IMG/VR virus record: IMGVR_UViG_3300030732_000036
Location: 1-42,470 of that record
Length of the DNA stretch: 42,470 bases
Strand: one strand, 5' to 3'
Origin: a virus
The notes under the pieces were generated by a model. It was not told the DNA's origin and ran no database searches. It saw only the letters and a list, made by a program, of their open reading frames with translations. The translations under genes were made by a program, and so were the position numbers. Position 1 is the stretch's first letter; the number at the start of each line of letters is the position of its first letter. Shown here in pieces: positions 5,727 through 27,123 of this stretch.

Positions 5727-6215
5727 ATGACCACGAAAACCGCCCCCCGCAGAGCCCGATCCGACAGCGCCACCGCCGCGATAAACGCCGCAAAAAATGC
5801 CGCGCTTGGCGACCTTATGCCCCCCGAGCACGTAAAAATTTCCCCTGAAGTTCTGCCCGACTACATCGCCATCGTCCGCGCCCGCGCGCGCGACGAGTGG
5901 AGCGAACTGGACCTGATCGTCGCCGCCCAGCTGGCCGAGGTGATCGGGCAGCAGCGCGAGCAGACTGCGAAAATCACGCTCGAAGGCGACGTGGTGGAAA
6001 ACATGAAAGGCACCTTGGTTGCCAACCCCCGGGTGACGATTCTCGAACGCCTGGCCGGCCGACAAATGGCCTACATGCGCACGCTGCAGATGGGCGGCCG
6101 GGTGCCCGGCACCGCCGGCGACAAGCGCAAGAAGCAAGGCGCGCGGCAGCTTGAACGTGGCGCCCGCGCCGCGCACCAACAAGCCGCCGACGAAACCAAC
6201 AACCTGCTGGCGTAA
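5727..6215 (+). CDS. terS: terminase small subunit (P27-family-like)
   Basis: Lies immediately upstream of terL and is coupled to it by TAATG. Basic N- and C-termini. The call rests on position and loose similarity only. Confidence 0.6.
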   Translation: MTTKTAPRRARSDSATAAINAAKNAALGDLMPPEHVKISPEVLPDYIAIVRARARDEWSELDLIVAAQLAEVIGQQREQTAKITLEGDVVENMKGTLVANPRVTILERLAGRQMAYMRTLQMGGRVPGTAGDKRKKQGARQLERGARAAHQQAADETNNLLA

Positions 6216-7786
6216 TGGCCGCGCGAGCAAAAAAGCCGATGACCCGCGGCGAGCGGGTGATTGCGTTCATCGAAACCTACTGCATCGTGCCCGAGGGCGA
6301 CTTGATCGGCCAGCCGATGCGGCTCGAACCGTTCCAGCGCAAGTGGGTGCTGGAGGTGTACGACAACCCGCACGGCACCCACACCGCCGTGCTGTGCATC
6401 GGCCGCAAGAACGGCAAGACCGCGCTGATCGCGGCCCTTCTGCTGTGCCACATCGCCGGCCCCGAGGCGGTGCAGAATTCCCAGATCGTCAGCGGCGCCA
6501 TGTCCAAGGACCAGGCGGCCATCGTGTTCAAGCTGGCGCGCAAGATGGTCGAAATGTCCGGCGACCTGGCCGCCCGGGTGCGGGTGTTCCCCTCGGTGAA
6601 ATCCTTGCTCGGCCTGTCGAAGAACGTTGAGTACAACGCGCTGTCCGCCGAGGCGAAGACGAAGCACGGGCTCTCGCCGATCCTGGTGATCTTCGACGAG
6701 ATGGGCCAGGTGCGAGGGCCGATGAACGACTTCGTGACCGCGCTCGAGACCGCGCAAGGTGCGTATGACCACGCCCTGAAGTTCATCATCTCGACCCAAG
6801 CGCCGAGCGACGCCGACATGCTGTCCATCATCATCGACGCGCAGCTCGACCCGCTCAACACCCCGGACCCCCAGGTGGTGGTGCACCTCTACACCGCGCC
6901 GATGACGCGCAAGGGCCCGGACGGCAAGGACATCGAGATCCCTTTCGACGACGAGGACGGCATGCGCGCGGCGAACCCGGCGCTCGGGGTGTTCCGGTCC
7001 ATGAACGACCTGCGCAAGCTGTGCACGAAGGCCCACACCACGCCGTCGTTCGAGCCCGAGTTCCGGAACCTGAACCTGAACCAGCGGGTGGAGGCGGCGG
7101 CGCCGTTCGTGCCGCGGTCGGTGTGGATGGCGAACGGCGCCGACCCGGTGGCCAAGCCGCGCCCGCGCGTCTATGGCGGCCTGGACCTCTCGGCCGTCAA
7201 CGACTTGACCGCCCAAGTCCTGGTAGACGCCGACGACGGCAGCGTGTGGCCAACGTTCTGGTTGCCGGCGCACGGGCTCAAGGAGAAGGCGAAAGCGGAC
7301 AAAGTTCCCTATGACATTTGGGAGAAGCAAGGATTCTTGCAGACAACCCCCGGAAAAGCGATAGAATACGAGTTTATAGCCTTGCATTTGCGCAAAGTGT
7401 TCGACGAGAACGACGTGCAGCTGTTCGGTTTCGACCGTTACAACATGAAATTCCTGAAGCCTTGGCTCGCAAAAGCCGGGTTTAGCCAAGAGGAAATTGA
7501 CAAATTTGTTGAATTCGGGCAGGGTACGGCCAGCATGACCCCCGCCCTGCGCGACCTGGAGGTAAAATTGTTGAACGCACAACTTAAGCACGGCAACCAC
7601 CCTGTGCTCAACATGTGCGCAGCCAACGCCAAGGTGGTAGGCGACAGCGGCGCCCGCAAGTTCGACAAGCGCACCATCCGCGGTCGCATCGACGGTATGG
7701 TGGCCCTGGCCATCGCGGCGGGCGTGATGCCGCAGCCGGTCGAGGAAGAGTCCGGCACCCTTGAGGATTACCTGGCCACGGCATGA
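6215..7786 (+). CDS. terL: terminase large subunit
   Basis: Walker A-like motif CIGRKNGKT and Walker B-like motif ILVIFDEMG, followed by a C-terminal nuclease-type region. Sits directly upstream of the portal gene. Confidence 0.9.
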   Translation: MAARAKKPMTRGERVIAFIETYCIVPEGDLIGQPMRLEPFQRKWVLEVYDNPHGTHTAVLCIGRKNGKTALIAALLLCHIAGPEAVQNSQIVSGAMSKDQAAIVFKLARKMVEMSGDLAARVRVFPSVKSLLGLSKNVEYNALSAEAKTKHGLSPILVIFDEMGQVRGPMNDFVTALETAQGAYDHALKFIISTQAPSDADMLSIIIDAQLDPLNTPDPQVVVHLYTAPMTRKGPDGKDIEIPFDDEDGMRAANPALGVFRSMNDLRKLCTKAHTTPSFEPEFRNLNLNQRVEAAAPFVPRSVWMANGADPVAKPRPRVYGGLDLSAVNDLTAQVLVDADDGSVWPTFWLPAHGLKEKAKADKVPYDIWEKQGFLQTTPGKAIEYEFIALHLRKVFDENDVQLFGFDRYNMKFLKPWLAKAGFSQEEIDKFVEFGQGTASMTPALRDLEVKLLNAQLKHGNHPVLNMCAANAKVVGDSGARKFDKRTIRGRIDGMVALAIAAGVMPQPVEEESGTLEDYLATA

Positions 7787-9108: not shown

Positions 9109-9757
9109 AGCGATCCCGCTGGAGATCAAGGCCCAAGGCGCTAACGGCACCTTCTCAGGGTATGGCTCGGTGTTCAACGTGCTGGACAAGGGCGGCGACA
9201 TCATCGTGCCGGGCGCCTTCACGGCCAGCCTGGCGCGCTGGAAGGCGTCGGGCCGCAACGTGCCCATGCTGTGGCAGCACGACACCGACGAGCCAATCGG
9301 GCACTGGCCTGAGCTGAAGGAAGACGACCACGGCCTGTTCGGCACCGACGCCCAGCTGTGGCTGGAGGACGCGCCGTATGCGCGCCTGGCGCAGAAGGGC
9401 ATGAGCACGAAGACGATCACCGGCCTGTCGATCGGCTACCGCGTCAAGCGCTTCTCGAAGGACACGGCGACCAGCGTCTATACGCTGCAGGAGCTGGATC
9501 TGGTCGAGATTTCGGTGGTCACGAACCCGATGAACGACCAGGCCCGCATCTCCGATGTGAAATCCATGATCGAGGCCGGCCGCTTGCCGAGCCTCCAAGA
9601 ATTTGAGCAGTTCCTGCGCGAGGCAGGCGGCTTCTCGAAATCGCAGGCCACCGCCATCGCCGGTAATGGTCTGTCGAAACTGCTGCACCGGGGTGAGCCT
9701 GGCGGCGACAATGGCGATATCCTGGCCGCGCTCAGCGGCTTCAAAATCACCCCATAA
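9092..9757 (+). CDS. prohead maturation protease (HK97 / S78-U35 type)
   Basis: Motif pattern FSGYGSVFNVLDKGGDIIVPGAF ... LWQHD...PIG ... SIGY. Lies between portal and capsid genes. Confidence 0.85.
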   Translation: MDYLTKAIPLEIKAQGANGTFSGYGSVFNVLDKGGDIIVPGAFTASLARWKASGRNVPMLWQHDTDEPIGHWPELKEDDHGLFGTDAQLWLEDAPYARLAQKGMSTKTITGLSIGYRVKRFSKDTATSVYTLQELDLVEISVVTNPMNDQARISDVKSMIEAGRLPSLQEFEQFLREAGGFSKSQATAIAGNGLSKLLHRGEPGGDNGDILAALSGFKITP

Positions 9758-9770
9758 AAGGAGTAACACC

Positions 9771-10952
9771 ATGCCACGCGACGACAACGACGCAACCGAA
9801 ATTAAAACCGAACTGGCCAAGATCGGCGATCAGGTCAAAGAATACGGCGAGAAAGCGCTGGCCGAAGCCAAGCGCGGTATCGCCATGACCGAGGCCGAGA
9901 AAGCCCGTGTTGACGAAATCCTGGTCAAGCAAGGCGAACTGCAGGCCGGCCTGACCGAGGTCGAGCAAAAGCTGGCACGCCAGGGCGAGCAGAACGACGC
10001 CCGTGTCAAATCGCTGGGCACCCAGGTGATCGAAAACGAGGCCTTCAAAAAGGCGCAATCCGCAGGCCAGCTGCGCCAGAAGGGCGGGCGCGTCACGGTG
10101 GAGATCAAGGCCATCGCCACGTCGACCTCGAACGTGGTCACCCCCGACTACCGCCCAGGCATCAACACGATTCCGAATCGCCGCCTGACGATCCGCGACC
10201 TGATTGCGCCAGGCCGCACCTCGTCGAACCTGGTGAACTACATCAAGGAAACCGGCTTCACCAACAACGCGGCACCGGTGGCCGAGGGTGCGCGCAAACC
10301 TGAATCGACCATCACCCACGCGCTGTCGAGCGCCGCGGTGAAAAAGCTGGCGCACTTCATGAAGGCCTCGACCGAGATCCTCGACGACCTGCCGGCGCTG
10401 ATGTCGCAGATCGACGCCCGCCTGGTCTACGGCCTGAAGCTGATCGAGGAAGGCCAGCTGCTCAAGGGTGCCGGCACCGGCAACAACCTGAACGGCATTT
10501 ACACCCAGGCCACCGCGTTCTCGGCGCCGATCGCCGTTACCTCGCCGACCAAGATCGATACGCTTCGCCTGATGCTGTTGCAAGCCGAGCTGGCCGAGTA
10601 CCCTTCGGACGGCATCGTACTGCACCCATCGGAATGGGCCACGATCGAGCTGCTGAAGGACACCACCGGCCGTTACCTGATCGGCAACCCACAGGGCAGC
10701 CTGTCGCCGACCCTGTGGGGCCGCCCGGTGGTCGAGACCCAGGCCATGACGGTCGACACCGCCCTGGTGGGTTCGTTCAAGCTGGCCGCGCAGATCTTCG
10801 ACCGCGAAGAAGCGTCGATCGTCATCGCGACCGAGAACGAAGACGATTTCGTCAACAACCTGATCACCATCCTGATCGAGGAGCGCCTGGCGCTGGCCGT
10901 GTACCGTCCTGAAGCCTTCATTAAGAACACCAACTTCGACGGCAGCGTGTAA
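9771..10952 (+). CDS. major capsid protein (HK97 fold family)
   Basis: AGGAG RBS. N-terminal coiled delta-like region, then RDLI..GRTSS..V.Y..E...N.A..VAEG..KPES typical of HK97-family capsids. The upstream extension from 9603 was rejected. Confidence 0.9.
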   Translation: MPRDDNDATEIKTELAKIGDQVKEYGEKALAEAKRGIAMTEAEKARVDEILVKQGELQAGLTEVEQKLARQGEQNDARVKSLGTQVIENEAFKKAQSAGQLRQKGGRVTVEIKAIATSTSNVVTPDYRPGINTIPNRRLTIRDLIAPGRTSSNLVNYIKETGFTNNAAPVAEGARKPESTITHALSSAAVKKLAHFMKASTEILDDLPALMSQIDARLVYGLKLIEEGQLLKGAGTGNNLNGIYTQATAFSAPIAVTSPTKIDTLRLMLLQAELAEYPSDGIVLHPSEWATIELLKDTTGRYLIGNPQGSLSPTLWGRPVVETQAMTVDTALVGSFKLAAQIFDREEASIVIATENEDDFVNNLITILIEERLALAVYRPEAFIKNTNFDGSV

Positions 10953-10959
10953 AACGGCG

Positions 10960-10979
10960 GGCGGCGCTTCGGCGCCGCC
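10960..10979 (+). terminator. GC hairpin with UUCG tetraloop after the capsid gene (partial terminator or mRNA stabiliser)
   Basis: GGCGGCGC-TTCG-GCGCCGCC lies 8 nt after the stop. Only TT follows, so termination is probably partial. Confidence 0.4.
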
Positions 10980-11002
10980 TTGCACACCCAAAGGACAGAA
11001 TC

Positions 11003-11242
11003 ATGAAAGTCAAAGCGAGAGCACTGGACACCTTCTTCGATGGTCGCCTGCACGCGGTCAAGGACGGCGTCTACACCATGAACAAGGGCAGCGCCGACGA
11101 GCTGGTGGCGGTGGGCCTGGTCGAGATTGTCGGCGATGCCGACGACGATGCTATCGACGACCTGGTCGACACCAAAATGGAACCGATCAGCCACAACAAA
11201 ATGGAGCCCGCGCCAAGGAACAAGGCCGGCGGCAAAAAGTAA
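11003..11242 (+). CDS. hypothetical small acidic/basic protein (79 aa)
   Basis: AGGA RBS. Acidic stretch followed by a duplicated KMEP motif and a Lys-rich tail. Confidence 0.55.
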   Translation: MKVKARALDTFFDGRLHAVKDGVYTMNKGSADELVAVGLVEIVGDADDDAIDDLVDTKMEPISHNKMEPAPRNKAGGKK

Positions 11243-11254
11243 AAGGAGCACGAC

Positions 11255-11722
11255 ATGGCAACAGGCAATATGAAGTGGTTCGCACAGGCGCTGCTCGATG
11301 GGTTCAAGAAACTGCACGACCTGAGCGCCGATGATATCCGTATGGGCATCGTGACTAACGCTGTGGTGCCGACGCTAGCCACGGCGGACCCGCGTTGGGG
11401 TGCCGGCGGCACCACCGATTTCTCGGCCAATCAAGTCCCTTTGGCGACCGGCTACGCAGGCCCTGTGGCGCTCGATAACGAGACATGGACCCTGGTGTCC
11501 AACGTGCCGACGCTGCGTGCCGATATTGAAGATATTCCGATGGACGCCAGTGGCTTCACCACCGGCGCCTATGGCATCATCTTCAACAACACGGACGCAG
11601 GCAAACGCTGCCTGGGCTTCGTCGAGATTTCGGCGGCGGGATCGGGCTCGAATGTCGGCGCGATCTTGCGTCTCGACTGGTCGGGTGCGAGCAACGACAT
11701 GTTCACCATCACCCAGGCGTAA
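11255..11722 (+). CDS. hypothetical structural-module protein (155 aa)
   Basis: AAGGAG RBS. Beta-rich composition, located in the head module. Function not recognised. Confidence 0.6.
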   Translation: MATGNMKWFAQALLDGFKKLHDLSADDIRMGIVTNAVVPTLATADPRWGAGGTTDFSANQVPLATGYAGPVALDNETWTLVSNVPTLRADIEDIPMDASGFTTGAYGIIFNNTDAGKRCLGFVEISAAGSGSNVGAILRLDWSGASNDMFTITQA

Positions 11723-11728
11723 GCACAC

Positions 11729-12817
11729 ATGGTCACGCCAACAAACGTCAGCTATTCGGCGGGCAGCGGCGAGACCATTTATGCGGGTCTCTTCGACCCC
11801 GGGGTGCAGCCGGCATGGCTGGCGGCGCACCCGGCGCTATTCGAGTGGTTCGAGATCCCCGGCACGTCCGGGGCGGATGGTGCGGCTGTTGACGCCTATT
11901 GCGGGATGGCTCTCAAACAGGCCACCGCCGAAATCATCGTCGCGCTGAGTGGCGGGCATCTGGATTCGTACGACAACCGGGTCAGCAGTATTTCCTTGCT
12001 GGATGACGCCCCAGCTTGGGTTCGCCGTCACGAGCCAACGCCAGCCGGGCAGGTTCTCGCCAACCAGTCATACAACGCGGACGGCCTGCCGGCATCGCGC
12101 CATACCCGGTATCAATGCATCTACGTGCCGCAACTGAACCGCTTAATCATGCTGGGGTCGCCGTCGCTATATGGCGGCAGCGTAGTGTCGTCTACGGAAT
12201 CGAACGGTTTCGACCTGGCGACGAATACATGGGATGCGGCAGGAACCTGGACACCAACGGCAAACGGCGGGTCATACGGGTCTGCCGTTGACGATCTTGG
12301 CAATATCTGGTTGCGTGGCGGTGGAAAATGGCTTCGTGAAACCGACACGATAGTGTCAACTGCTGTTGTTCGTGCGCCGAACATGTGGGACCCAGTGCGT
12401 CGGCATCTTTTCACTATGTACACCGGAGACGGGCAGGGCTTTGGAACTGACTTCGTGGCCAAGACCGTCCACGAGACGACGGGCGTCGGCACCAACATCA
12501 CGTTCAACGACAGCGCGGCGTACACCGAATTCCGAGCGCTGAGCCTTTCCTATTGTGCGATGACATACAACCCGCTGAACGGACGCTATCTCTATTATTT
12601 CGGCCAAGGTGCAAATCAGGGCGTGATTTACGAGGTAGCCCCGAACGACACGACCGTGTGGGACATGGCGAAGATCGTACAGGGCGCAGGAACCATCCTG
12701 CCTGTGGCGGCGCCTAGCGCGGGCATCCAGACCAAATTCCAATACGTCGCCGCGCTCAAAGGTATCGTGATGCTGGCGCGTAAGACATCGAACTTATACT
12801 TTATGCGACTGGAGTAA
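11729..12817 (+). CDS. beta-propeller-like (Kelch / galactose-oxidase-like) protein, function unknown
   Basis: 362-aa ORF with repeated G/W/Y-rich blade-like segments. Third codon positions look visibly less GC-rich than in flanking capsid genes. The fold call is tentative. Confidence 0.55.
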   Translation: MVTPTNVSYSAGSGETIYAGLFDPGVQPAWLAAHPALFEWFEIPGTSGADGAAVDAYCGMALKQATAEIIVALSGGHLDSYDNRVSSISLLDDAPAWVRRHEPTPAGQVLANQSYNADGLPASRHTRYQCIYVPQLNRLIMLGSPSLYGGSVVSSTESNGFDLATNTWDAAGTWTPTANGGSYGSAVDDLGNIWLRGGGKWLRETDTIVSTAVVRAPNMWDPVRRHLFTMYTGDGQGFGTDFVAKTVHETTGVGTNITFNDSAAYTEFRALSLSYCAMTYNPLNGRYLYYFGQGANQGVIYEVAPNDTTVWDMAKIVQGAGTILPVAAPSAGIQTKFQYVAALKGIVMLARKTSNLYFMRLE

Positions 12818-12820
12818 CAC

Positions 12821-13876
12821 ATGCCCGTTCAATCTGACGGAACCACAGGGTATCTCGAGCACCCCGATAAGATTGTCAGCGCCTACCCGATGTCACTAGC
12901 GGTATGGGGAACTCGCACCTCGTCGTCAGGCGATCAGTATTGGATCACTCAAGCTCAGTCCAACGGTGACCGATACGTCGGGGGCTACCAGAAAAGCGCA
13001 AGCGAAGCAAAGCTCGCGGTAATGCAAGAGCCCGGTTCGTCTCGCTCGGCGCAGAAATCGGGAGCCCCTAACGTCAGCTCAACCGTGCTGCAACTGATGG
13101 TGGTTGTTATCCACAGCAAGGACAGTCGGACTATTTATTTCGGTGACACGAACGGCGTCACCGACAATGCAACCGGTGTAAACGGCATTGCGAACCACAA
13201 CCTGTGCACGTTGGGCGCTCGGCACTACAACAGCGGAGCGGCGTCCCTATTCATCAAGGGGGCGCTGGCCGAAGCGCACTGGTATAACGTCGCGCTGACC
13301 CCCGCAGACGTCGGCAACATGATCGCCGATACGGTCAAGCCGGAAGCAATTTCAGGTTGGGTCGATGGTTGGATGCTGAAGGACTTCGAGGCCGACGGCA
13401 CGTACACCTCGATCGGCGGGACGCGCACCATGACCGCTGTTGGCGGTATCAGCGCATCGGCGCTGGCACATCCTATCAATCGGTCAAGCGGCGTCACCAC
13501 CATCAACTGCACCCCTGCCAACGCGGACGCGCAGGGTCTGACAGCGGCCGTCACGTCGGGCGGGGTGGTGGCGATCAGCTGCACGCCGGGGGCGGCCACC
13601 GCCGCCGGGGCGACCGCAGCGGTTAGGCGCTTGATCCATTCCGATTACGCCATCAATAACGCCGGCATCGCGCAGGCCAGCGCGGCGGTCCATTATTCGT
13701 GGTTCCCGGGCGGCCGTGTGGGGGCCCTGACCGGCATCACCCCAACAGAGGGCACCGCGACCTTGCAGGCGGACGGCAGCTTTAAAACGAATATCGACCT
13801 GGTCCCGGGCGCGCTGATGTACAGCGTTCTGGCGGGCTCCTACTTGGATGACGCGGTCTACTGGGAATTCTTCTAA
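12821..13876 (+). CDS. LamG / concanavalin-A-like lectin-fold protein with two C-terminal 24-aa Cys repeats
   Basis: GGAG RBS. Laminin_G_3-like end motif IKGALAEAHWYNVALTPADV. Repeats TTINCTPANADAQGLTAAVTSGGV and AISCTPGAATAAGATAAV lie at 13496-13624. Confidence 0.65.
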   Translation: MPVQSDGTTGYLEHPDKIVSAYPMSLAVWGTRTSSSGDQYWITQAQSNGDRYVGGYQKSASEAKLAVMQEPGSSRSAQKSGAPNVSSTVLQLMVVVIHSKDSRTIYFGDTNGVTDNATGVNGIANHNLCTLGARHYNSGAASLFIKGALAEAHWYNVALTPADVGNMIADTVKPEAISGWVDGWMLKDFEADGTYTSIGGTRTMTAVGGISASALAHPINRSSGVTTINCTPANADAQGLTAAVTSGGVVAISCTPGAATAAGATAAVRRLIHSDYAINNAGIAQASAAVHYSWFPGGRVGALTGITPTEGTATLQADGSFKTNIDLVPGALMYSVLAGSYLDDAVYWEFF

Positions 13877-15111
13877 TGCCTCTGCGGAACCTCAATCAGC
13901 GACTATCCCGTGGGCGGGTGCTCGACACCCCGCAATCGGGCCGCCTGGCGGAATTGTTCCCCTCGACGGGCGAACACGGCCCCGCATACCCTTACCCCAG
14001 CCTGGTGTTCCCTGCCGATACCGGCAAAGAGATCAGCGCCTATATCACCGTGCTGCCGGTCGGCCTGACGACCTTCGAAGCCGACAATCTGGGGCGCATG
14101 GTGGCGAGTGGCCCGGACGGCGTCTACACCTTCCAATTCCAGCTGGCGGCCAATGGTGTGGATGTCGGTGCTCCGGCGACGGGGACGCTGACCATTGGCG
14201 CTGCGGCACCGACCGTTATAAACTGCACCCCCGCCAACGCCGGTGCGGCGGGGCTCACGGCCGCCATCACAAACGGAGGCTTGACGACCATCTCGTGCAC
14301 CCCCGCCAATGCCGCCGCAGCAGGCGCGACGGCCACGGTCACGAACGGCGCGGTGAATACCGTGGCATGCACGCCCGCCGGTGCCGCAGCGGGCGGCCTG
14401 ACCGCAACGGTGACGTTCGGAGGGCTGACGACCGTTTCCTGCGCCCCCGCGGCCGCGCTCGCCGGGGGATTAACCGCCACGGTGACGAACGGGGCGGCCG
14501 TGATCGTCACCTGCACGCCGGCGAACGCGATTGCGGCCGGGCGTACCGCTATAATTTCTGGAGAAGACATGAGCGAACCGATCACCCTTGCCCGGGCTAA
14601 GGCTCACCTGCGGGTGGTCGTGAGCGATGACGACGACTACATATCCGACCTCATCGTGGCGGCCCGCCAGATGATCGAACAGCGCACCCAGCGCGCCATT
14701 GTGACCAGGACCGAGTCCCTCGCCTTCGACACCTTCCCTTCGGTCGTTCGGCTACCGTGGCCGCCGTTCTCCCAGATCCTCGAGATCAGCTATATCGACG
14801 AGAATGGCGCTTCTGCCACCCTGCCGCCGGAAAACTACGTCGTCAACGACTACGCCGAGCCCGCGAGGATGACGCGTGCCAGCGGCGCCACGTGGCCCAC
14901 CCACGCCGCGCAAGAGGCCGCCGTGGTGATCACCTATGAGACCGGGTACGCGGGCGCCAACGCCGTCCCCGTGCCGCTCAAACAGTGGATGCTGCTGGCA
15001 ATCGGCGCGATGTACGAGAATCGCGAGCAGTGCGCCGCCGGCGTGCAAATCTATTCGATCCCGGAGGACTTCATGGGCCTGCTGTGGCAACCCTACATGG
15101 TGTACATGTAA
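13876..15111 (+). CDS. Ig-like domain + 5 x 24-aa Cys repeats fused in frame to a gp6-like head-tail connector
   Basis: TAATG coupling to the upstream gene. Cys at residues 117, 141, 165, 189 and 213. The C-terminal 180 aa have the connector signature ITLARAKAHLRV..DDDDYISDLIVAARQMIEQ. Confidence 0.7.
   Translation: MPLRNLNQRLSRGRVLDTPQSGRLAELFPSTGEHGPAYPYPSLVFPADTGKEISAYITVLPVGLTTFEADNLGRMVASGPDGVYTFQFQLAANGVDVGAPATGTLTIGAAAPTVINCTPANAGAAGLTAAITNGGLTTISCTPANAAAAGATATVTNGAVNTVACTPAGAAAGGLTATVTFGGLTTVSCAPAAALAGGLTATVTNGAAVIVTCTPANAIAAGRTAIISGEDMSEPITLARAKAHLRVVVSDDDDYISDLIVAARQMIEQRTQRAIVTRTESLAFDTFPSVVRLPWPPFSQILEISYIDENGASATLPPENYVVNDYAEPARMTRASGATWPTHAAQEAAVVITYETGYAGANAVPVPLKQWMLLAIGAMYENREQCAAGVQIYSIPEDFMGLLWQPYMVYM
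14569..15111 (+). CDS. head-tail connector (gp6-like), possible independently initiated short isoform
   Basis: In-frame ATG 14569 is preceded by GGAGAAG. The resulting 180-aa product is a typical stand-alone connector in size and N-terminus. Confidence 0.55.
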   Translation: MSEPITLARAKAHLRVVVSDDDDYISDLIVAARQMIEQRTQRAIVTRTESLAFDTFPSVVRLPWPPFSQILEISYIDENGASATLPPENYVVNDYAEPARMTRASGATWPTHAAQEAAVVITYETGYAGANAVPVPLKQWMLLAIGAMYENREQCAAGVQIYSIPEDFMGLLWQPYMVYM

Positions 15112-17953: not shown

Positions 17954-20900
17954 ATGGTCAGCGACATTGAAATCCGGCTACGCGCAGACATCGCCCGCCT
18001 TCAGCAAGATATGGACCGGGCCCGCCAGGCGGTGGGCGGGGGGCTGGACAAGATCAATACCGCGGTCGGCAAAACCGCCGGCATGTTCGCAGGCCTGGCC
18101 GTCAGTGTCGGCGCGGTGTCGTTCGTCGCCTTCGTCAAGCAAAGCATCGACGCGGCCGACGCCCTCAACGACCTGAGCGCACGCACGAAGATCGCCGCTA
18201 CCGACCTGGCCGGGCTGGAGTTCGCCGCCAAGATGTCAGGGTCGACGCTGGAGGGTGCGGCCAACGCGGTCAGCAAACTCGCGGTGAACATGGGCAAGGA
18301 CGCCGAGAAATTCCGCGCCCTGGGCGTCACCGCCAAAGACCCGCTCGAGGCGTTTAAGCAGCTGGCCGAAGTCTTCAAAGACATTCAAGACCCGCAGCAG
18401 CGCGCCGCCTTCGGCGCGGCCGCGCTGGGCAAGAGCTGGGCCGAGGTGGCGCCGCTGCTCGACGAGGGCGCGGTGGGCATCGGGGCGATGGTCGACCGCG
18501 GCAAACAGCTTTCGGGCGTCACTGACCAGATGGTGAAGGATGCCGCAGCGTTCAATGACAAGCTCGACGAGATGGGGTTCGTTGTGCGCGGCGTCGGCAC
18601 GCGCCTGGCGGCCGATCTGCTGCCGATGCTAAATTTGCTGGTGGACGATCTGACCGCCACCGGGGACGCCACGGCGAAGGCCACCGCCGAATTCAGCCCC
18701 CTGGCCGAAATTTTCAGGGGCGTCGTGGTCCTCGGCGGCTATATCACCTACCGTTTCAAGGAGCTGGGCACAGAAATAGGCGTGGCCACCGCCCAGGTGG
18801 TGGGCCTTACCAGCGCAATGTATAGCTTCCTGACCCTTGATTTCGACGCGGGGGTGTCGAAGCTGCGAGGCACCAGCGCTGCGGCCGCGCTGTCCGCAAC
18901 CGAAGCCCGCAAGGCAAGCGACGACTTCGACGCGTGGCGCAAAAAGTGGGCGGAACTGGGCGCCACCGCCCGGACGGCCAGCACCGAGGTGGGGGACAGC
19001 GCCGAAGCGGCCGCCGCGCGCGCCGCTGCCGCCGCCAAGAAAGCGGCCGAATTCCTCAAGGCCGAAGAACTCGCCGCCGCGCGCAAGAAGGCGGCCGACG
19101 AGTCCGCGCGGGCGACCAAGAAAGAAGAGGACGCCTACCGGGGGCTGATCAGCTCGATCAAGGAAAAAATCAACGCCAACGAGATGGAGCTGGCGACGGG
19201 CGAACCGCTCACCGAAATGCAGAAAATGCGCCTCAAGCTGGACCAGGACATTGAGGACGGCACGCTGGCGCTGACCGCGGCCCACCTCGACGAAGTGCAG
19301 GCGCTGCTCGACATCCTGGACGCGTCCCAGCGCTACGCCGCGGGGGTGAAGAAGGTTGCAAAGGCCGTTGAGGACTTGGGCACCGAGCGCGAATCTGCGC
19401 TCAAGATCGCCACCAACGAAGCCGAGACGCAGGAACGTCTCGTTGCCGAGTTCGGTAAAACGAAATTGGCGATCGAGAAAGTTACGCTTGCGCGCATGGA
19501 GGAACGCCTGGCGCAGCGTGCTGCGCTCGAGCTGGACGAAAAGGAAGTGGAACAGCTGAACCGGCTGATCGAGGCCAAAACGCGCGCGGTCGCCGCCGGC
19601 AGCCAGCTGGAGGTGCTGGAGCAGCAGAAGAAAGCGACCGAAGAAGCGACCGAAGCGCACAGGGAAATGTGGGAGTCGATCGACCGTACAGCGCACGATA
19701 CCTTCGTCAGCATCATGAACGGGGGCAAGAACGCTGCGCAGCGCCTGAAAGACACCCTCAAGAACACCTTCTTCGATTGGCTGTATCAGCAGACGCTGAA
19801 GAAGTGGATCATCAATATCGGCACGGCCACGGATTCCGGCGGCCTGGTGTCGGGCATCGCTTCGATGTTCGGCGCCGGCGGCGCGACGGGCGGCAGCGGC
19901 GGCTTCATGGCCAACGCATCGACCTGGATCTCGGCAGGCAAGAGCATCTACCAGGGCTTCTCCACCGGCATCGCGGGCAGCCTCGGCGGCCTGGTGTCGA
20001 GCTTCGGCACCGCCATTGGTTCGTCCGCAGTCTCGGCGTTCGGCATGGGCATGTCCTCGCCAGCGGCCGCCGCAGTCGCTGCCGAACTGGCCGGCGGTGC
20101 AGCGGGCGCCACAGTCGGCGCCGCCGGCGCGGCCAGCGCGGGGGCGGGTGCCAGCGCTGCAGCCGCCGTGCCTATCGTCGGCTGGATTGCGGCGGCCATG
20201 ATCGCGGCGAACGCCGTCTATAAACAAGGGTGGGACGCACAGAACGGCACCATGAGCGCGACCGGCGAAGTGCTGGGCGCGCCCGGCCTGGTGGGAAATA
20301 AAATCCTGCAGGGCATCGGCATGAACAACACCATGGCCAATATGTTTTCGGGCGCCAGCGCGATCTCCACCCTGTTCGGCCGCCGCAACCCGCGCGTGAC
20401 CAGCCAGGGCCTGGAGGGTGCGCTCACCATGGACGGCTTCAGCGGGCAGACCTTCGCCAACATCGAGGAAAAAGGCGGCCTGTTCCGCAGCACCAAGCGC
20501 TACACCCAAACGGGTGCTCTCGGCACGGAGCAGGAAAAAGCGTTCGAAGACACGATGCAGGCCATCGCAACCTCCGTGAAGGTGTTCAGCGAGGTACTGG
20601 GGGTCGAGGCTGACGTGCTGGCCGGGTACAGCAAACAGATCAAGCTGGAGCTCACGAACGACGCCACCCAGAACCAGGCGATTATCTCGAAGATGCTCGG
20701 CGAGGTCGGGGACGAGCTCTCGATGCGCCTGATTCCGGGCCTGAACGCGCTGACCAAAGAAGGCGAGACATCGAGCACCGCGCTGCAGCGCCTGGTGGGG
20801 GACTACCAAGCCCTGGACGCGATCTTCGGCACGATCGGAACCACGTTCGGCGCGGTCGGCGTGGGCAGCCTGGAGGCGCGCGAGCGCTTGATCGAACTGG

Positions 20901-22504
20901 GCGGAGGGGTGCAGGCGCTGGCTGCCGGCGTCGACTCGTTCGCGCAGACCTTCCTCACCGAGGCCCAGCGCATGGCTCCGGTGCAGGCAGCGGTGGTCAA
21001 AGGCATGGCCGACATGAATCTGGCATGGGTGGACACCCGCGAAGAATTCGCGGCCGTAGTCCTCGGCCTGGACAAGACCACCGAGGCCGGCGCGAGGGAC
21101 TTCGTCTCCCTGATGGCGCTGCAAGAAGCCTTTGCCGCCGTCTATCCGGAGATCGAGAACACCACGGGCGCGCTCATGAGTTCGGCCGATGTGCTGCGCC
21201 AGCGCGCCGCCATCCTGAAAGAATTCGAGCAGGTTTACATGACGCAGGGCGAGATCGAGCGCGAGCAGATCGACGCCACCAATCTCGCCATCTATGACCT
21301 GCTGCAGACCCGCAAGGCCGAGAAGCAGGCGGCGGAAGACGCTGCGGTGGCAGCCAAGAACCTGGCCGAGGGTATGCGCGGCGCCGTGGCCGAATCGCTG
21401 TCCCACGTCGAAGACATGGTGCAGCAGCGGATGGCCACCGAGAAGGCCGCGTTCGATGACGTCATCGCAGGCATCAGCTCGAGCATGGAGCGCGTCAACG
21501 GGAGAATCAGCAAGCTGCGCGAGCTGGCCAGCGCGCTGGCAACGGCGGTCCCGGTGCAGCAGACCCAGCAGCAGGCCGCCGCCGTGCGCCAGCTGGCCGC
21601 CGCGCAGGTCGCCGCGGCGCTGGCCATCGCGCGCGCGTCGGGGGTGCTGCCGAGCGCGCAGAGCCTGGCCCCGAGCCTGAAGGCCCTCGGCGCCGGCGAC
21701 ACCGGGGAATTCGCCACCTTCCAAGAGTTCCAGCGCAGCCAGCTGCGCGCCGCGAACGACATCAACGCGCTGTCCCAGATGGCCGTCGGTCAGCTGTCGG
21801 TGGAAGAGAAAACGCTGAGGGTGTTGCAGGACCAGAAATACCAGGCCGAGGTAGCCTACAAAGACCAGATCGGGGTGCTGAACCTCATCTTGGACAACGC
21901 GCGTAAGCAGACCGAGGACGCACTCAAGGGCGCGAGGGTGCTGGCGGCCATCCCTACCGCCCTGCAGAACATCCCGGGGGCCCTGAACGAGCTTACGCGG
22001 ACCATCGTGGCCCTGCAGGTGATGACCCCGCCGCCCGCCGCTGGCGGCCCGGCAGCACCCCCAACAGGCACCTCGCCGCCGCCTACCGGGACAGTGGTGT
22101 TGGACCAGGCCCGCATGCTGAACGAAATCTACCGCGAGCTGCTGCGGCGCGACGCGGACGCCGGCGGCCTGGCGTATTACCTGGAAGAACTGAATTTGCG
22201 CGGCCAGTCTTTCGACCAGGTCCGCCAAAGCATCTTGAGCAGCCCGGAGTATAAGGCGCTGCAGCTGACCCAAACGACGGGCTTTGCCTCAGGGACACAA
22301 ACCAGTACAATGATGCAGGACAATAATGCGGCGTTGCTGGAAGAACTGCAGGCCCTGAACGAGCGGATGGCGAAAGTGCAAACCGAAATGGAAAAGACCG
22401 CGAAAAACACCGAACAATCGGCGCTGGCGGGTTCCCAGATGGCCGATCAATTCAATAACGTCTCGGCCGGCGGTAACGTGCTGCTGATGGAATCGGCGAA
22501 ATGA
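17954..22504 (+). CDS. tape measure protein (1516 aa) with C-terminal Pro-rich linker and DUF4214-like module
   Basis: Long coiled-coil-rich ORF after the chaperones. It has a Gly/Ala-rich hydrophobic core and a C-terminal LNEIYRELLRRDADAGGLAYYLEEL...SPEY segment. Confidence 0.9.
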   Translation: MVSDIEIRLRADIARLQQDMDRARQAVGGGLDKINTAVGKTAGMFAGLAVSVGAVSFVAFVKQSIDAADALNDLSARTKIAATDLAGLEFAAKMSGSTLEGAANAVSKLAVNMGKDAEKFRALGVTAKDPLEAFKQLAEVFKDIQDPQQRAAFGAAALGKSWAEVAPLLDEGAVGIGAMVDRGKQLSGVTDQMVKDAAAFNDKLDEMGFVVRGVGTRLAADLLPMLNLLVDDLTATGDATAKATAEFSPLAEIFRGVVVLGGYITYRFKELGTEIGVATAQVVGLTSAMYSFLTLDFDAGVSKLRGTSAAAALSATEARKASDDFDAWRKKWAELGATARTASTEVGDSAEAAAARAAAAAKKAAEFLKAEELAAARKKAADESARATKKEEDAYRGLISSIKEKINANEMELATGEPLTEMQKMRLKLDQDIEDGTLALTAAHLDEVQALLDILDASQRYAAGVKKVAKAVEDLGTERESALKIATNEAETQERLVAEFGKTKLAIEKVTLARMEERLAQRAALELDEKEVEQLNRLIEAKTRAVAAGSQLEVLEQQKKATEEATEAHREMWESIDRTAHDTFVSIMNGGKNAAQRLKDTLKNTFFDWLYQQTLKKWIINIGTATDSGGLVSGIASMFGAGGATGGSGGFMANASTWISAGKSIYQGFSTGIAGSLGGLVSSFGTAIGSSAVSAFGMGMSSPAAAAVAAELAGGAAGATVGAAGAASAGAGASAAAAVPIVGWIAAAMIAANAVYKQGWDAQNGTMSATGEVLGAPGLVGNKILQGIGMNNTMANMFSGASAISTLFGRRNPRVTSQGLEGALTMDGFSGQTFANIEEKGGLFRSTKRYTQTGALGTEQEKAFEDTMQAIATSVKVFSEVLGVEADVLAGYSKQIKLELTNDATQNQAIISKMLGEVGDELSMRLIPGLNALTKEGETSSTALQRLVGDYQALDAIFGTIGTTFGAVGVGSLEARERLIELGGGVQALAAGVDSFAQTFLTEAQRMAPVQAAVVKGMADMNLAWVDTREEFAAVVLGLDKTTEAGARDFVSLMALQEAFAAVYPEIENTTGALMSSADVLRQRAAILKEFEQVYMTQGEIEREQIDATNLAIYDLLQTRKAEKQAAEDAAVAAKNLAEGMRGAVAESLSHVEDMVQQRMATEKAAFDDVIAGISSSMERVNGRISKLRELASALATAVPVQQTQQQAAAVRQLAAAQVAAALAIARASGVLPSAQSLAPSLKALGAGDTGEFATFQEFQRSQLRAANDINALSQMAVGQLSVEEKTLRVLQDQKYQAEVAYKDQIGVLNLILDNARKQTEDALKGARVLAAIPTALQNIPGALNELTRTIVALQVMTPPPAAGGPAAPPTGTSPPPTGTVVLDQARMLNEIYRELLRRDADAGGLAYYLEELNLRGQSFDQVRQSILSSPEYKALQLTQTTGFASGTQTSTMMQDNNAALLEELQALNERMAKVQTEMEKTAKNTEQSALAGSQMADQFNNVSAGGNVLLMESAK

Positions 22505-23457
22505 CGATCGAAGCCACCGACAGCATCAACATCATGGCGCCGGTCACGATAACCGACGCCATGCTGACTGCCACCAATATCTCGCCGGAGGACTCCACGG
22601 GGCTGTGGTCCGGAGCCGCCACCTACGCCAAAGGCGAACGTCGGTATCTGGCCAGCACGCACCGGGTGTACGAGAACCTGCAGGACGGCAACACCAACAA
22701 AGACCCCAGTGTGCTGGCGAACCAGGTCAACGCGCAGGGTGAAGGCACCTGGTGGCAAGATGTCGGACCCACCAACCGGTGGGCGATGTTCGACACGATG
22801 GTGTCGACCCAATCGCAGCGCACCGGGTCGATCAGTTTCACCCTCACCCCGGGCGCTTTCAACGGCTTCGCGTTCTACGGCTTGGACGGGGACCACATAC
22901 ACGTCGTCGCCAAGACCGCGCCCGGCGGTTCGGTCTACTTCGAATACGATGAAGATCTTGAAGACTCGGCGCCGGCCGACTACTACGAGTATTTTTTCGA
23001 CCCATTCAAGCCGCAGACCCAGCTGATCCAAGTCGGGCTGCTGCCCTACGCCAGCGCGGAACTGACGGTCACGGTCACGAAGACGACGGGGGAAGCCAAG
23101 ATCGGTATGTTCGCTATCGGCCTCTTCAGCTCCGCCGGTGCGCCGCTGCGCGGGGCGGTCGCCGAGCCGCAAGATTTCAGCTACATATCGACGGATTCGT
23201 TCGGCGTGACCACCCTCAAGAAGCGGCACAACGCGACCGGCCTGGTCATCAGCGGCCAGCTCGATGTGGCCGACGCCAGTAGCACCCTCGACATCATTAA
23301 ACGCCTGCTGGGGGTGCCCTGCGTGGTGATCGGCAGCACGAAAGACCATTACCTTGGCTTAACGGCTTTCGGCCTGATCAGCGCCCGCGCGGTGTATGCA
23401 CCGGACAACAAGGTCGACGAAGTCACAATTAATTACACCGTGAAAGGGCTGGTCTGA
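22501..23457 (+). CDS. minor tail / distal tail protein candidate (318 aa)
   Basis: ATGA coupling to the tape measure gene. Functional call is positional only. Confidence 0.55.
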   Translation: MTIEATDSINIMAPVTITDAMLTATNISPEDSTGLWSGAATYAKGERRYLASTHRVYENLQDGNTNKDPSVLANQVNAQGEGTWWQDVGPTNRWAMFDTMVSTQSQRTGSISFTLTPGAFNGFAFYGLDGDHIHVVAKTAPGGSVYFEYDEDLEDSAPADYYEYFFDPFKPQTQLIQVGLLPYASAELTVTVTKTTGEAKIGMFAIGLFSSAGAPLRGAVAEPQDFSYISTDSFGVTTLKKRHNATGLVISGQLDVADASSTLDIIKRLLGVPCVVIGSTKDHYLGLTAFGLISARAVYAPDNKVDEVTINYTVKGLV

Positions 23458-25343
23458 TGCCTATCGAATCCCCACCGCCGATTACTCCGGTCCCGACCCC
23501 TGTTCCGCAACGGGGCGACCGCGCCACGTTCTCCGACCGGGTGGACGCCTATGTCACGTGGACGGAAGACGCGCCGCCCGAATTCGAGGCCCTGGCCGAT
23601 AACGTCGAGCACAATGCCAACGAGGCGTTGACCTATGCCACGAATTCGGCGGCCAGCGCCACGGCATCGGCGGGCAGCGCCACGGCCGCAGCAGGCAGCG
23701 CCACGGCAGCAGCCACCAGCGCCACGAACTCGGCGGCCAGCGCCACAGCGGCAGCAGCCAGCGCGGCCAGCGCGGCGGCGTTGGCGGGGGCCTTCGTCGG
23801 CACCAGCGCCTCGTCGCTGACGATCGGCACGGGCAACAAGACATTCGCCACCCAGGCCGGCGAGCAGTACACCGCCGGCATCACCATGACCGCGGTCAGC
23901 CAGGCCAACAACGCCAATTGGATGGCCGGCCAGGTGGTGAGCTACGATAGCGGCACCGGGGCGCTGGTGATCAACGTCAACGCCACCGGCGGCAGCGGCA
24001 CCTTCGCCGACTGGAACCTGTCACTGGCCGGCGTGCAGGGCCCGCAGGGCACGCCCGGCACCCTGAGCGGCACCGCTGTTGGCGCGATCAACCTGATCGA
24101 GGGCGCGGCGATCGCCACGGCCGCCACCCTGCCGCTGAACAACATCGACGGCAATTTCATGCACGCCACCGGCAACACCGGGTTTAATGCCACCAGCATC
24201 GCTCAGGGCGCCGAGCGTACCGTGGTGTTCGACGGCACCCCCTTGGCGACCCACGGCGCGAACCTGATCCTGCCGGGCGGCGCGAATATCCAGCTGGCCG
24301 CCGGCGACGTGATGAAGTTCATCGGCGAGGGCGCCGGCGTCACCCGGGTGGTGATGGTCACGCGCGCGGCCGCAGTGCCGAACGAAACCATCCCGCGCTC
24401 GGCGCGCACGGCCAATGTCGCGTTCACCGTCAACGACAGCGGGTATCTGATCGATGTCACCTCGGGCACCTTCACGCAAACGTTCGGCGCGGCGTCGACG
24501 CTGGGCGACGGGTGGCACGTGTGGATGAAGAACGCACCCACCGGGGGTGATGTCACCCTGGACCCGAACGCCTCCGAGACCATCGACGGCCTGACCAGCT
24601 TCGTGATGTACCCCGGCGAATTCCGCCTGGTCCAATGCGACGGCGCCGCGTTCCGCTCCTACGTGCTGAACCCGTTCAATCGCACTTTCGATTCCAGCGC
24701 CACGTTCGTCAAACCGCCCGGCTATCGATTCTTCGGCGGCAAGATCACGAACGGGGGCAACAGCGGCCGCAAGGGCGGGGGTGGCGGCTCGGTGATACCC
24801 GGCGGGGCGGGCGGCGGAACGTACCCGTTCCTGCTGGCTGCCGGGCTTTTCGGGGCCACCGAGGCTATCACCGTCGGCGCGGGCGCCGCAGGGCAGACGG
24901 CTGCAGCCACCGACGGCAACGTGGGTGGCGTGAGTTCAATTGGTTCTATCCTGGTCATGGCAGCATCGAACAATTACAAAACCGGGTCTGGCATATCGTC
25001 GGTCCAGGGGTCCAGCGGCGTTGCGGTGGGGTTCGAAGGGGCCGCAGGTAACACCACGAGTTCGGGCACCAGCGTATGGGGAGGTGCCGCGCCGTCAGGA
25101 AATGACGTGATCCCCAGCGGCAGCAGCGTCGAGGGGGGCGCGGCCGGCGGCAGCATCGCCACGGACGGAGTTACGCTGATCGCACCGGGCACATCGAAGT
25201 TCGCAGGGAACGGAGGTACCGCCCAGCTGACTTCAAGCGGCACTGCGGGCGTAGCGCCGGGCGGCGGCGGCGGGGCGACGGACACAGGGCCGTCATCAGG
25301 GCCCGGGGCATCGGGTCGGGTCCAAATTCACGGGGTGGCATAA
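23457..25343 (+). CDS. tail fibre / receptor-binding protein with Ala/Ser heptad region and Gly-rich C-terminal domain
   Basis: N-terminus PQRGDRATFSDRVDAY is followed by SAASATASAGSATAAAGSATAAATSA repeats. C-terminal region has GGKITNGGNSGRKGGGGGSVIPGGAGGG. Confidence 0.75.
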   Translation: MPIESPPPITPVPTPVPQRGDRATFSDRVDAYVTWTEDAPPEFEALADNVEHNANEALTYATNSAASATASAGSATAAAGSATAAATSATNSAASATAAAASAASAAALAGAFVGTSASSLTIGTGNKTFATQAGEQYTAGITMTAVSQANNANWMAGQVVSYDSGTGALVINVNATGGSGTFADWNLSLAGVQGPQGTPGTLSGTAVGAINLIEGAAIATAATLPLNNIDGNFMHATGNTGFNATSIAQGAERTVVFDGTPLATHGANLILPGGANIQLAAGDVMKFIGEGAGVTRVVMVTRAAAVPNETIPRSARTANVAFTVNDSGYLIDVTSGTFTQTFGAASTLGDGWHVWMKNAPTGGDVTLDPNASETIDGLTSFVMYPGEFRLVQCDGAAFRSYVLNPFNRTFDSSATFVKPPGYRFFGGKITNGGNSGRKGGGGGSVIPGGAGGGTYPFLLAAGLFGATEAITVGAGAAGQTAAATDGNVGGVSSIGSILVMAASNNYKTGSGISSVQGSSGVAVGFEGAAGNTTSSGTSVWGGAAPSGNDVIPSGSSVEGGAAGGSIATDGVTLIAPGTSKFAGNGGTAQLTSSGTAGVAPGGGGGATDTGPSSGPGASGRVQIHGVA

Positions 25344-25861
25344 TGCGCGCAGCACATATTCATAACGGAAAAGTCGCCAACATCGTCGAGGTGGAAAGCC
25401 TCGACTTCGCGGGCTTGCACCTGGTGGCCGATACCGACCTGTACGGGGGCGTTGCCAAGATCGGGGACAAGTGGGCGGGCGGCCGCTTCACCACCGAGGC
25501 GCCAGACGCGCAGGCCGCTTTTGCCGCCCAGGTCCAAGCCTACGATGCGGTGGTGCAAGCGCGCATCGACAGCGTGGCCCGCAGCTTCGGCTACGGGGAT
25601 CCGAACCAGCCCGAGGTGTCGCCGATCCTGCACGCCATCAGCTACGCCGAAGAGCCCGCCGTGCGCAAGTTCCAAGCCGAGGGCCGGGTGCTGCGCGCGT
25701 GGCGCTCGCACTACTGGGCGGCCTGCTGGCCGATCCTCGAAGACGTGCGCGCGGGTCGGCGCGCGGTCCCTACCCCGAATGCATTGCTGGTCGAGCTGGA
25801 CGCCATCGCGCCGGCGCCGACCGCTCAAGATGTTGCCGACGAGATCGCAACAATGCTGTAG
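25343..25861 (+). CDS. hypothetical protein after the fibre gene (possible fibre chaperone)
   Basis: TAATG coupling to the fibre gene. No motif recognised. Confidence 0.55.
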   Translation: MRAAHIHNGKVANIVEVESLDFAGLHLVADTDLYGGVAKIGDKWAGGRFTTEAPDAQAAFAAQVQAYDAVVQARIDSVARSFGYGDPNQPEVSPILHAISYAEEPAVRKFQAEGRVLRAWRSHYWAACWPILEDVRAGRRAVPTPNALLVELDAIAPAPTAQDVADEIATML

Positions 25862-27122: not shown

Positions 27123-27123
27123 C

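Follow-up and report, generated by a model that had tools for sequence, protein, structure and literature searches.

Accessory adhesion devices determine the host range of phages and the first, reversible step of their adsorption. To our knowledge, nearly all those described in siphophages that infect Gram-negative bacteria are located at the tail tip. In this study, we analysed IMG/VR record IMGVR_UViG_3300030732_000036, a JGI metagenome contig from an uncultivated phage, over its whole length of 42,470 bp (the window). Four genes of this window, here called A to D, lie between the gene of the major capsid protein (MCP) and the domain of a gp6-like head-tail adaptor, and D runs into that domain in one reading frame. 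Our reading is that the phage acquired this region horizontally as an accessory fibre cassette, the products of which most likely form whiskers at its neck, and we give this reading a probability of roughly 0.6.

Lactococcal 936 and P335 siphophages carry a neck passage structure (NPS; for example that of TP901-1), a dispensable collar-whisker with exchangeable carbohydrate-binding modules (CBMs) that binds weakly to host cells (PMC6669499). It is made of one protein of 500-900 amino acids (aa) with an N-terminal BppU-like ring domain or beta-sandwich, a trimeric coiled coil, and a C-terminal CBM (PMC6669499). The initial annotation of the window, made from the sequence alone, had named the NPS as a parallel, and it is a fair conceptual analogue. 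Like the NPS, the cassette would provide an accessory fibre at the head-tail junction whose exchangeable distal carbohydrate-binding or beta-helix modules aid adsorption through avidity. It differs in that four genes are involved, predicted beta-strand repeats take the place of the coiled coil, and the polarity is reversed, with the binding part N-terminal and the anchor C-terminal, and the anchor would be a direct fusion to the gp6-like adaptor. Searches with Pfam, PHROG, and NCBIfam detected no sequence or profile similarity to NPS in the window proteins. Fibres also project from the neck, below the portal, in the case of the T4 fibritin whiskers and the neck fibres of the Anabaena myophage A-1(L) (PMC10966104), but these are myophages whose unrelated proteins sit on dedicated collar or neck rings, and no homology to them was found. 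Overall, the region is a recurrent accessory cassette of unannotated families, of a known functional kind (putative ancillary virion adhesins) and with a new architecture and a new anchoring solution.

The block between the capsid and adaptor genes

The region contains the following features, where ORF is open reading frame and GC3 is the GC content at third codon positions.

About 9768-10952, MCP gene (PF05065)
11003-11242, plus strand, 79-aa orphan ORF with an acidic centre and a Lys-rich tail, AAGGA Shine-Dalgarno sequence, GC3 0.80
11255-11722, plus strand, gene A (155 aa), which opens the cassette; predicted fold resembling N-terminal domains of phage fibre proteins
11729-12817, plus strand, gene B (362 aa), predicted Kelch-type beta-propeller with invariant GGH and DGxPxSRH motifs
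12821-13876, plus strand, gene C (351 aa), with a LamG/ConA-like head, two 24-aa repeats, and a conserved C-terminal domain
About 12836-13312, plus strand, LamG/ConA-like head of C (PF13385)
13508-13630, plus strand, two 24-aa repeats of C, of the same type as those of D
About 13610-13873, plus strand, C-terminal domain of C (88 aa), conserved in L006, L007, L011, L013, L015, and L017
13876-15111, plus strand, 411-aa ORF (D and adaptor) with its TAA stop at 15109-15111
13876-14214, plus strand, D N-domain, a conserved beta-sandwich at the N terminus of the 411-aa ORF
14224-14568, plus strand, D stalk of five 24-aa repeats, the last one truncated
14560-14571, plus strand, internal start signal, a GGAG Shine-Dalgarno sequence and an ATG (14569) that opens the adaptor domain, with ATGA retained
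14569-15111, plus strand, gp6-like head-tail adaptor (Ad1) domain, the C-terminal 180 aa of the 411-aa ORF

The ORFs of this 3.5-kb block all lie on one strand, and the accessory block that had been placed between the capsid gene and the connector is present (11003-14568). Burkholderia phage KS9 has the same neck and tail gene order, and its adaptor gene follows about 50 nt after the MCP gene with nothing between them. Hence, compared with the standard gene order, the block has been inserted. The intergenic gaps inside the block measure 12, 6, and 3 nt, and TAATG overlaps join C to D and the adaptor to the head-closure gene, in agreement with the operon coupling proposed earlier. The sole longer gap, of 50 nt, separates the MCP gene from the 79-aa ORF and contains a GC-rich hairpin. 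The central genes had been called less GC-rich than their neighbours, and their GC3 (0.756 in A, 0.697 in B, and 0.684 in the LamG part of C) is indeed below that of the terminase, portal, MCP, adaptor, and tail genes (0.82-0.89), which fits a later acquisition. The proposal of an acquired cluster of binding-type modules inside the structural operon is supported.

D and the head-tail adaptor share one reading frame

The block had been divided into five coding units, the last a 231-aa protein. The other four ORFs are separate, but the 231-aa unit (13876-14568) has no stop codon. The D frame is open from 13876 to the TAA at 15109-15111, and residues 1-231 are the D part, so D and the adaptor form one 411-aa ORF with a junction sequence that includes '...IISGEDMSEPITL'. 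The adaptor domain was recognized by PF05135 (E 3.5e-9, 37.4 bits, cut-off 21.2), by TIGR02215 (E 6e-23, 81.5 bits, cut-off 39, residues 233-390), and by phrog_442 (E 2e-25), and the gene that follows through TAATG encodes the head-closure protein Phage_HCP. The usual stand-alone form of the adaptor (about 100-190 aa), which KS9 and locus L007 have, does not occur in the window.

In L007, to which L019/L020 are identical, D is encoded on its own, as a protein of 230 aa that ends with a basic tail ('...VYARAPSGSGYSPRRNEASSRPAAIQRNNR'), and the stop codon of D overlaps the adaptor start as ATGA. The same ATGA is still present in the window, where a GGAG lies 5 nt upstream of the ATG at 14569. 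All separate close relatives have this basic tail of about 30 aa, and its absence from D of the window accords with a deletion as the origin of the fusion and less with a point error. In the simplest history, a deletion would have taken away the tail and the stop codon, fusing D to the adaptor, and the internal start would still permit synthesis of the plain adaptor. The same D::gp6-like adaptor architecture was found in protein P0282, which has 26% identity to the window ORF and no Met at the junction. It is encoded in two assemblies from different samples (L017/L018), between an HK97-type MCP gene and a head-closure gene.

It is known that extra binding domains, such as Ig-like ones, can be added to structural proteins by alternative translation. 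In T7 (10A/10B) and in lactococcal phages with TpeX (PMC6669499), a core virion protein is made with and without a surface module and only some subunits display it. The parallel here would be a putative long form starting at 13876 and a short form starting at ATG 14569. The difference is that the modules of 10B and TpeX are C-terminal and arise by frameshifting, whereas the window has its module at the N terminus and would need two sites of initiation.

D-family proteins are fused to neck proteins

We scanned 147 representatives of the D family with Pfam and found eleven partner families. All partners that are parts of virions belong to the head-tail interface, namely Gp77 (seven cases), Mu Gp36 (two cases), and, with one case each, the SU10 adaptor, the SPP1 gp17-type tail completion protein (Tail_completion_gp17), and the gp6-like connector (Phage_connect_1). 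The others were the surface domains Bact_surface_Ig-like, fn3, Ig_3, Big_9, and DSCAM-type FN3, as well as YmgL. No fusion to a baseplate, capsid, or decoration protein, and no linkage to a capsid protein, was present among these 147 representatives. Among 50 IMG/VR loci whose D gene is complete, a Gp77-type domain was fused to D in three and an Ad1- or Gp77-type gene lay immediately downstream in 14 (17 of 50 in sum). A Gp77-like domain was fused to D, or encoded right after it, in L003, L006, L013, and nine IMG/VR loci, and Pfam identified DnaT_2-type connectors, the SU10 adaptor, HCP, gpZ, and P22 gp10-type proteins among the IMG/VR neighbours. The Gp77 match had an E value of 5e-12 in P0181 and of about 1e-4, below the cut-off, in the ORFs of L003 and L006. 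Such 'Rosetta stone' fusions to neck proteins are our chief ground for proposing that D is anchored at the neck by its C terminus, with the N-domain in a distal position.

Gp77 of the Ralstonia podophage GP4 (PF23148, PDB 8jou chain D) ties fibres to the adaptor region and links the D family to this kind of attachment, and GP4 is described as having an unusually complex fibre set (bioRxiv 10.64898/2026.04.10.717836). The window differs from GP4, a podophage, in that Pfam detected no Gp77 domain (about 84 aa) in its proteins, the gp6-like adaptor standing in its place.

Several observations weigh against neck whiskers. The fusion of the window was seen on one metagenomic contig only, the closest relative (L007 and its identical copies) keeps D and the adaptor as separate genes, and a 1-nt error within 14555-14569 would leave D as a gene of its own, ending at the ATGA still present there. 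Gp77 serves as a fibre-to-tail adaptor in a phage of the podophage type, in which neck and tail are one place. Next to D, about half of the IMG/VR loci have a gene for a portal, terminase, (protease-)capsid, or lysis protein and not for a neck protein; these neighbours are module boundaries. The invariant His/Asp/Arg/Ser motif of B could be catalytic rather than lectin-like. Finally, the cassette of L011, a 105-kb NCBI contig, follows the gene for a 1817-aa gpJ-like fibre and precedes the lysis genes, which is a side-tail-fibre position.

The first of these points would be explained if the D-adaptor fusion were an assembly or sequencing artefact, a 1-nt indel, and D a separate 231-aa protein. 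The stop codons of the +1 frame at 14552 and 14570 and the preserved overlap motif agree with this explanation. However, an equivalent fusion occurs in another lineage and in two independent assemblies, fusions of D to Gp77, the SU10 adaptor, and Mu gp36 are frequent, and the absent basic tail speaks for a larger event than a 1-nt indel. We regard an artefact as unlikely.

The position of the L011 cassette would be expected of a side tail-fibre module located at the tail tip or baseplate, similar to lambda Stf. In that case, recombination would by chance have brought the genes close to the capsid gene and D into frame with the adaptor, and the functional adaptor would be solely the one made from the internal start. 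The good Shine-Dalgarno sequence and ATG ahead of the adaptor domain, the similarity of the A fold to the N-terminal domains of annotated tail and tail-collar fibre proteins, and the minimal tail tip of this phage, for which extra receptor-binding proteins would be useful, are in line with such a module. On the other hand, the D family has no baseplate partner versus five neck-protein families, and the fusion in L017/L018 lacks an internal start. Moreover, the conserved parts of the cassette occur in phages with unrelated tails, which makes a common docking site at the tail tip unlikely. We consider a tail-tip module quite improbable, and the fusion data favour the neck.

C and D are linked by domain order and by repeat type

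The D N-domain belongs to a family of 479 representative proteins (clusters) at E<=1e-3, in which it is mostly N-terminal and sometimes present in two or three tandem copies, followed by diverse short-repeat stalks and variable C termini. It had no match in Pfam (including the Ig families), PHROGs, or NCBIfam, and a tblastn search of 50,697 phage records with C and the 411-aa ORF returned matches to the adaptor part only and none to the N-terminal part of D. AlphaFold predicted a confident beta-sandwich for residues 15-110 or so (predicted local distance difference test score, pLDDT, of about 90). Its best PDB matches (SraP, cadherin, invasin, and PKD domains; E 0.1-1, probability <=0.63) are not significant. 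The initial annotation had described this part of the region as Ig-like with repeats; the repeats are present, and the Ig-like character is supported as far as a confidently predicted beta-sandwich. The C-terminal tails of the family (P0146-P0295) fall into recurrent classes, 'LPISLGxTLDGxLIIL', 'ARAPSGSGY...RPxAIQRNxR', 'LSQADIDAIAAAIWAHP', and 'IPVNVKxVNG..GxGTxxNPWxP', which may be alternative non-covalent anchors.

C had been annotated as a LamG/ConA-like protein, and Laminin_G_3 (PF13385) indeed matched its residues 6-164 over profile positions 1-150 of 151 (40.6 bits, cut-off 27.6, E 3.6e-10). The same Pfam family left a weak mark in L007, L008, and L009. From fold class only, we infer that the LamG and Kelch heads of the cassette bind carbohydrates. 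The coding sequences for the C-terminal domain of C and for the D N-domain are invariably adjacent; an automatic tally gave 13 further IMG/VR loci with this order, and the coordinates of L019/L020 show it too.

The repeats have a period of 72 nt (24 aa), with five copies in D and two in C, and the consensus of the D repeats is CTPANAxAAGLTAxVTNGxxxxIS. They are predicted to form short beta-strands, with a modest pLDDT of about 63. The D copies share 64-70% DNA identity. Tandem Repeats Finder called no tandem DNA repeat, and conservation of the repeats is confined to the protein sequence. Three unrelated types of repeat exist among the relatives, and C and D of one genome carry the same type. 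The 24-aa 'CTPANAxAAGLTAxVTNG...' type is present in the window, L006, L007, L011, and L013, a type of about 15 aa ('SVSSDLAATYxI') in L003 and in D of L017, and a type of about 20 aa ('GISSAEAFGxAxLT') in L015. In comparisons of 16-aa segments, the C repeats best matched the D repeats of their own genome in six of seven loci, and the observed diagonal sum was reached by 2 of 5040 permutations overall and by 2 of 120 within the first repeat class. At identical four-fold degenerate residues of the C and D repeats, the third base agreed in 26-44% (DNA identity 48-72%). Recent gene conversion was rejected as the source of this likeness because synonymous sites are saturated, and the likeness is therefore maintained by selection acting at the protein level. 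The co-variation could reflect a stalk, a partner, or an assembly requirement that C and D have in common, and it offers a clean, testable signal of a protein-protein interface.

The cassette recurs in different genomic contexts

We traced relatives of the cassette by tblastn and by looking up their genomic context. A, B, C, and D occur in the same order in the close relative L007, again in the position between MCP and adaptor, and in L006, which has a different head module with a DUF4055 portal. L003 also has the cassette, together with a head module unrelated to that of the window. In L013, a variant forms a stand-alone operon with genes of the opposite strand on both sides; it includes an extra protein that looks by eye like a right-handed beta-helix (no family match) and a 'mini-C' without LamG. 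L015 has a BNR_4 propeller in place of the Kelch domain. The parts that remain constant across the variants are A, an N-terminal motif of about 20 aa in the second-gene protein, the C-terminal domain of C, and the D N-domain. Placement of the genes had been taken as a sign of location in the virion. This argument does not hold, since the same cassette is found after the gpJ-like fibre gene in L011 and as a stand-alone operon in L013.

These comparisons raise the tentative idea of an undescribed, self-contained, mobile neck-fibre system of Gram-negative-type phages. It would have a conserved hub (A, the N-terminal peptide of the second gene, the C-terminal domain of C, and the D N-domain) and exchangeable heads (Kelch, BNR, LamG, and beta-helix), the anchor of D would be swapped among at least five neck-protein families, and the C and D repeats would co-evolve as one hetero-oligomeric stalk. 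We hold this wider proposal to be possible but somewhat doubtful. If true, siphophages would gain a second, head-proximal receptor-binding organelle. A mobile cassette that displays lectin-type heads at the neck and changes its anchor by swapping one small adaptor domain would open a new way for host range to evolve, and it would be a handy scaffold for engineered display on phage necks.

Other domains and genes accompany the variants. A domain of about 660 aa is fused to the Kelch domain in P0007, P0018, and the 1072-aa protein of L017 (3571-6789), and to a D-like domain with repeats in L003 (11668-14289). It had no match in Pfam, PHROG, or PDB, and PDB sequence searches with the 873-aa protein of L003 and with P0241 were empty; the domain may be an enzyme such as a depolymerase. 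Beside the cassette variant of L017 and L018, an Acyl_transf_3 (O-acyltransferase-like) gene (L017, 2320-3375; L018, 826-1941, minus strand) lies on the opposite strand inside the slot between MCP and adaptor, which seems to be a hot spot for accessory genes.

A is predicted to resemble the base of fibre proteins

Protein A has more than 200 homologues with 52-66% identity, all unannotated, and no match in Pfam, PHROGs, or NCBIfam. Its AlphaFold model (pLDDT 92) gave no significant Foldseek match in the PDB, and a sequence search of the PDB with the A profile was also empty. In BFVD, the model matched proteins of Agrobacterium phages Atu_ph07 and 7-7-1, the latter annotated 'structural protein' (E 3.5e-6 to 1e-4, TM-score 0.63-0.74), followed in the list by many proteins annotated 'tail (collar) fiber'. 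We read this predicted likeness as a match to the N-terminal module of fibre proteins. Only two uncultured P22-like phages were found by tblastn of A against the 50,697 phage records, and a scan of genome contigs with the A alignment gave 600 pattern matches of which none was confirmed. A is encoded without B, C, and D in other phages (L001, 7001-7459; L002, 7001-7498; L010, 8001-8471; L012, 8001-8462). This stand-alone A, including that of P22-like podophages, adjoins genes for a portal, an adaptor, or a 'tail fiber', has further unannotated proteins encoded after it, and is far better conserved than any neighbour. Homology of A to phrog_644, the family of a 136-aa protein of L015, was weakly supported (hhalign probability 24%), and a relationship to the 165-aa protein of L003 (phrog_13135) was rejected.

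The match to the 7-7-1 protein bears on a location on the capsid. T4 Hoc consists of Ig-like domains and a capsid-binding domain and is bound at the centres of the hexamers. Agrobacterium phage 7-7-1 has capsid fibres of unknown composition (PMC12796354). The cassette could accordingly encode head fibres or decorations on the shell, like those of phi29 and 7-7-1 or like Hoc, and its genes do come after the MCP gene in the window as well as in six or more of the IMG/VR loci. Yet, it also moves among unrelated capsid types and to tail-fibre and stand-alone positions, and D is joined to an adaptor, with no capsid or decoration protein among the fusion partners of the 147 representatives. The window proteins gave no profile match to Hoc or decoration families in Pfam and PHROG. 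We judge fibres on the shell highly improbable. The earlier proposal had left open whether the adhesins are displayed on the head or the neck. The neck is best supported, by the D::adaptor fusion, by P0282, and by the five neck families, and nothing points to display of the Hoc type.

B is a predicted Kelch-type propeller

The B family is rare, with 20 relatives among 5.8 billion proteins. The 362-aa protein had been called propeller-like, and a profile of 22 family sequences matched the designed Kelch protein SAKe in the PDB in five stretches (E 1e-10) and Keap1/KLHL20 at about 1e-6. These matches support a Kelch-type beta-propeller as the predicted fold of B. B of the window itself had no Pfam match at E<=0.1 and none in PHROGs or NCBIfam, and the relative P0018 had a weak Kelch_3 match. 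An exact look-up of B in public assemblies and an IMG/VR scan with B alone were both empty. All family members contain the motifs GGH and DGxPxSRH. The second-gene proteins have in common the N-terminal motif M-x-T-P-x-N-V-x-Y-S-x-x-S-G-x-x-I-x-x-G (window, 11729-11790; L006, 8796; L011, 8476; L013, 1464; L015, 901). It is kept though the globular domain behind it differs (Kelch, BNR_4, or unknown) and could be a docking peptide.

The family also includes bacterial proteins with signal peptides or a sorting domain of the type IX secretion system (T9SS). Secretion of these relatives would suit a moron outside the virion, that is, soluble late lectins or enzymes that are released at lysis or have the host envelope as their target, where they might bind or modify capsule or exopolysaccharide. 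The invariant His/Asp/Arg/Ser motif, the fusion of some relatives to a large enzyme-like domain, the GC3 below that of core genes, and the O-acyltransferase moron in the same slot of L017 are compatible with this explanation. Against it, the genes are tightly coupled within the morphogenesis operon, D is fused to neck proteins in many lineages, the fold of A matches virion fibre proteins, and the stalk-like repeats of C and D are typical of fibres. A non-virion role is in our view very unlikely.

Proposed assembly of a neck fibre

For the neck whiskers that we favour, we propose the following assembly, in which we infer incorporation into the virion, location, stoichiometry, the contacts between C and D and those of A and B, and the ligand. 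D, with its beta-sandwich and five 24-aa beta-repeats, would be translated as an N-terminal extension of the gp6-like adaptor and thereby be carried into the dodecameric ring under the portal as a putative whisker. The internal Shine-Dalgarno sequence and ATG probably also yield the plain adaptor, giving a mixed ring in which the long form is diluted. C would dock on D via its C-terminal domain, its repeats, or both, a contact suggested by the constant position of this domain's coding sequence just ahead of that for the D N-domain and by the co-variation of the stalk repeats. A, with its fibre-base-like fold, and B, docking by its N-terminal motif, would complete a segmented or branched fibre. 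The exchangeable distal LamG and Kelch heads would bind cell-surface polysaccharide reversibly and raise adsorption, the neck fibre being an ancillary device beside the receptor-binding protein of the tail tip. Through this analysis, four unannotated protein families receive names and testable roles.

Other features of the block and the phage

The 79-aa ORF contains 15 Asp and Glu and 12 Lys and Arg residues, as expected from its earlier description as acidic and Lys-rich. It had no match in Pfam, PHROG, or NCBIfam, tblastn against the 50,697 phage records was empty, and no significant similarity linked it to the small ORFs that occupy its position in L003, L007, and L017. Judged from these comparisons, it is outside the conserved cassette. 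The hairpin upstream of it (10957-10983, GGCGGCGC-UUCG-GCGCCGCC, free energy -24 kcal/mol, z -2.0) lies just past the MCP stop codon, has no U-tract, and may be an attenuator or an mRNA-stability element that lowers expression of the accessory genes. Between 9500 and 16000, neither sigma-70 promoter-like sites nor plus-strand terminator-like sites were found, and terminator-like sites were no commoner than in shuffled sequences.

The 42,470-bp contig looks like a siphophage genome that is close to complete. Its structural arm encodes the small and large terminase subunits, portal, protease, HK97-type MCP, and neck proteins, followed by a 150-aa tail tube protein, a 1516-aa tape measure protein, a short tail tip, and an endolysin. 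The second arm is devoted to replication and encodes a DNA polymerase, helicase, primase, exonuclease, and methyltransferase. No tRNA genes were found in the window. The short tail tip (22501-25861) comprises a 318-aa protein (phrog_6278, function unknown), a 628-aa protein with tail-fibre PHROG matches that are all weak, and a 172-aa ORF. The lysis genes lie downstream of it, with the endolysin gene at 27091-27615. Very long ORFs are present on the minus strand at 9747-10991 (414 aa), 18629-22273 (1214 aa), and 6071-7600 (509 aa), where they overlap the MCP, tape-measure, and terminase genes, respectively. They are probably the usual artefact of a genome with 64% GC and a coding-strand GC3 of about 0.85.

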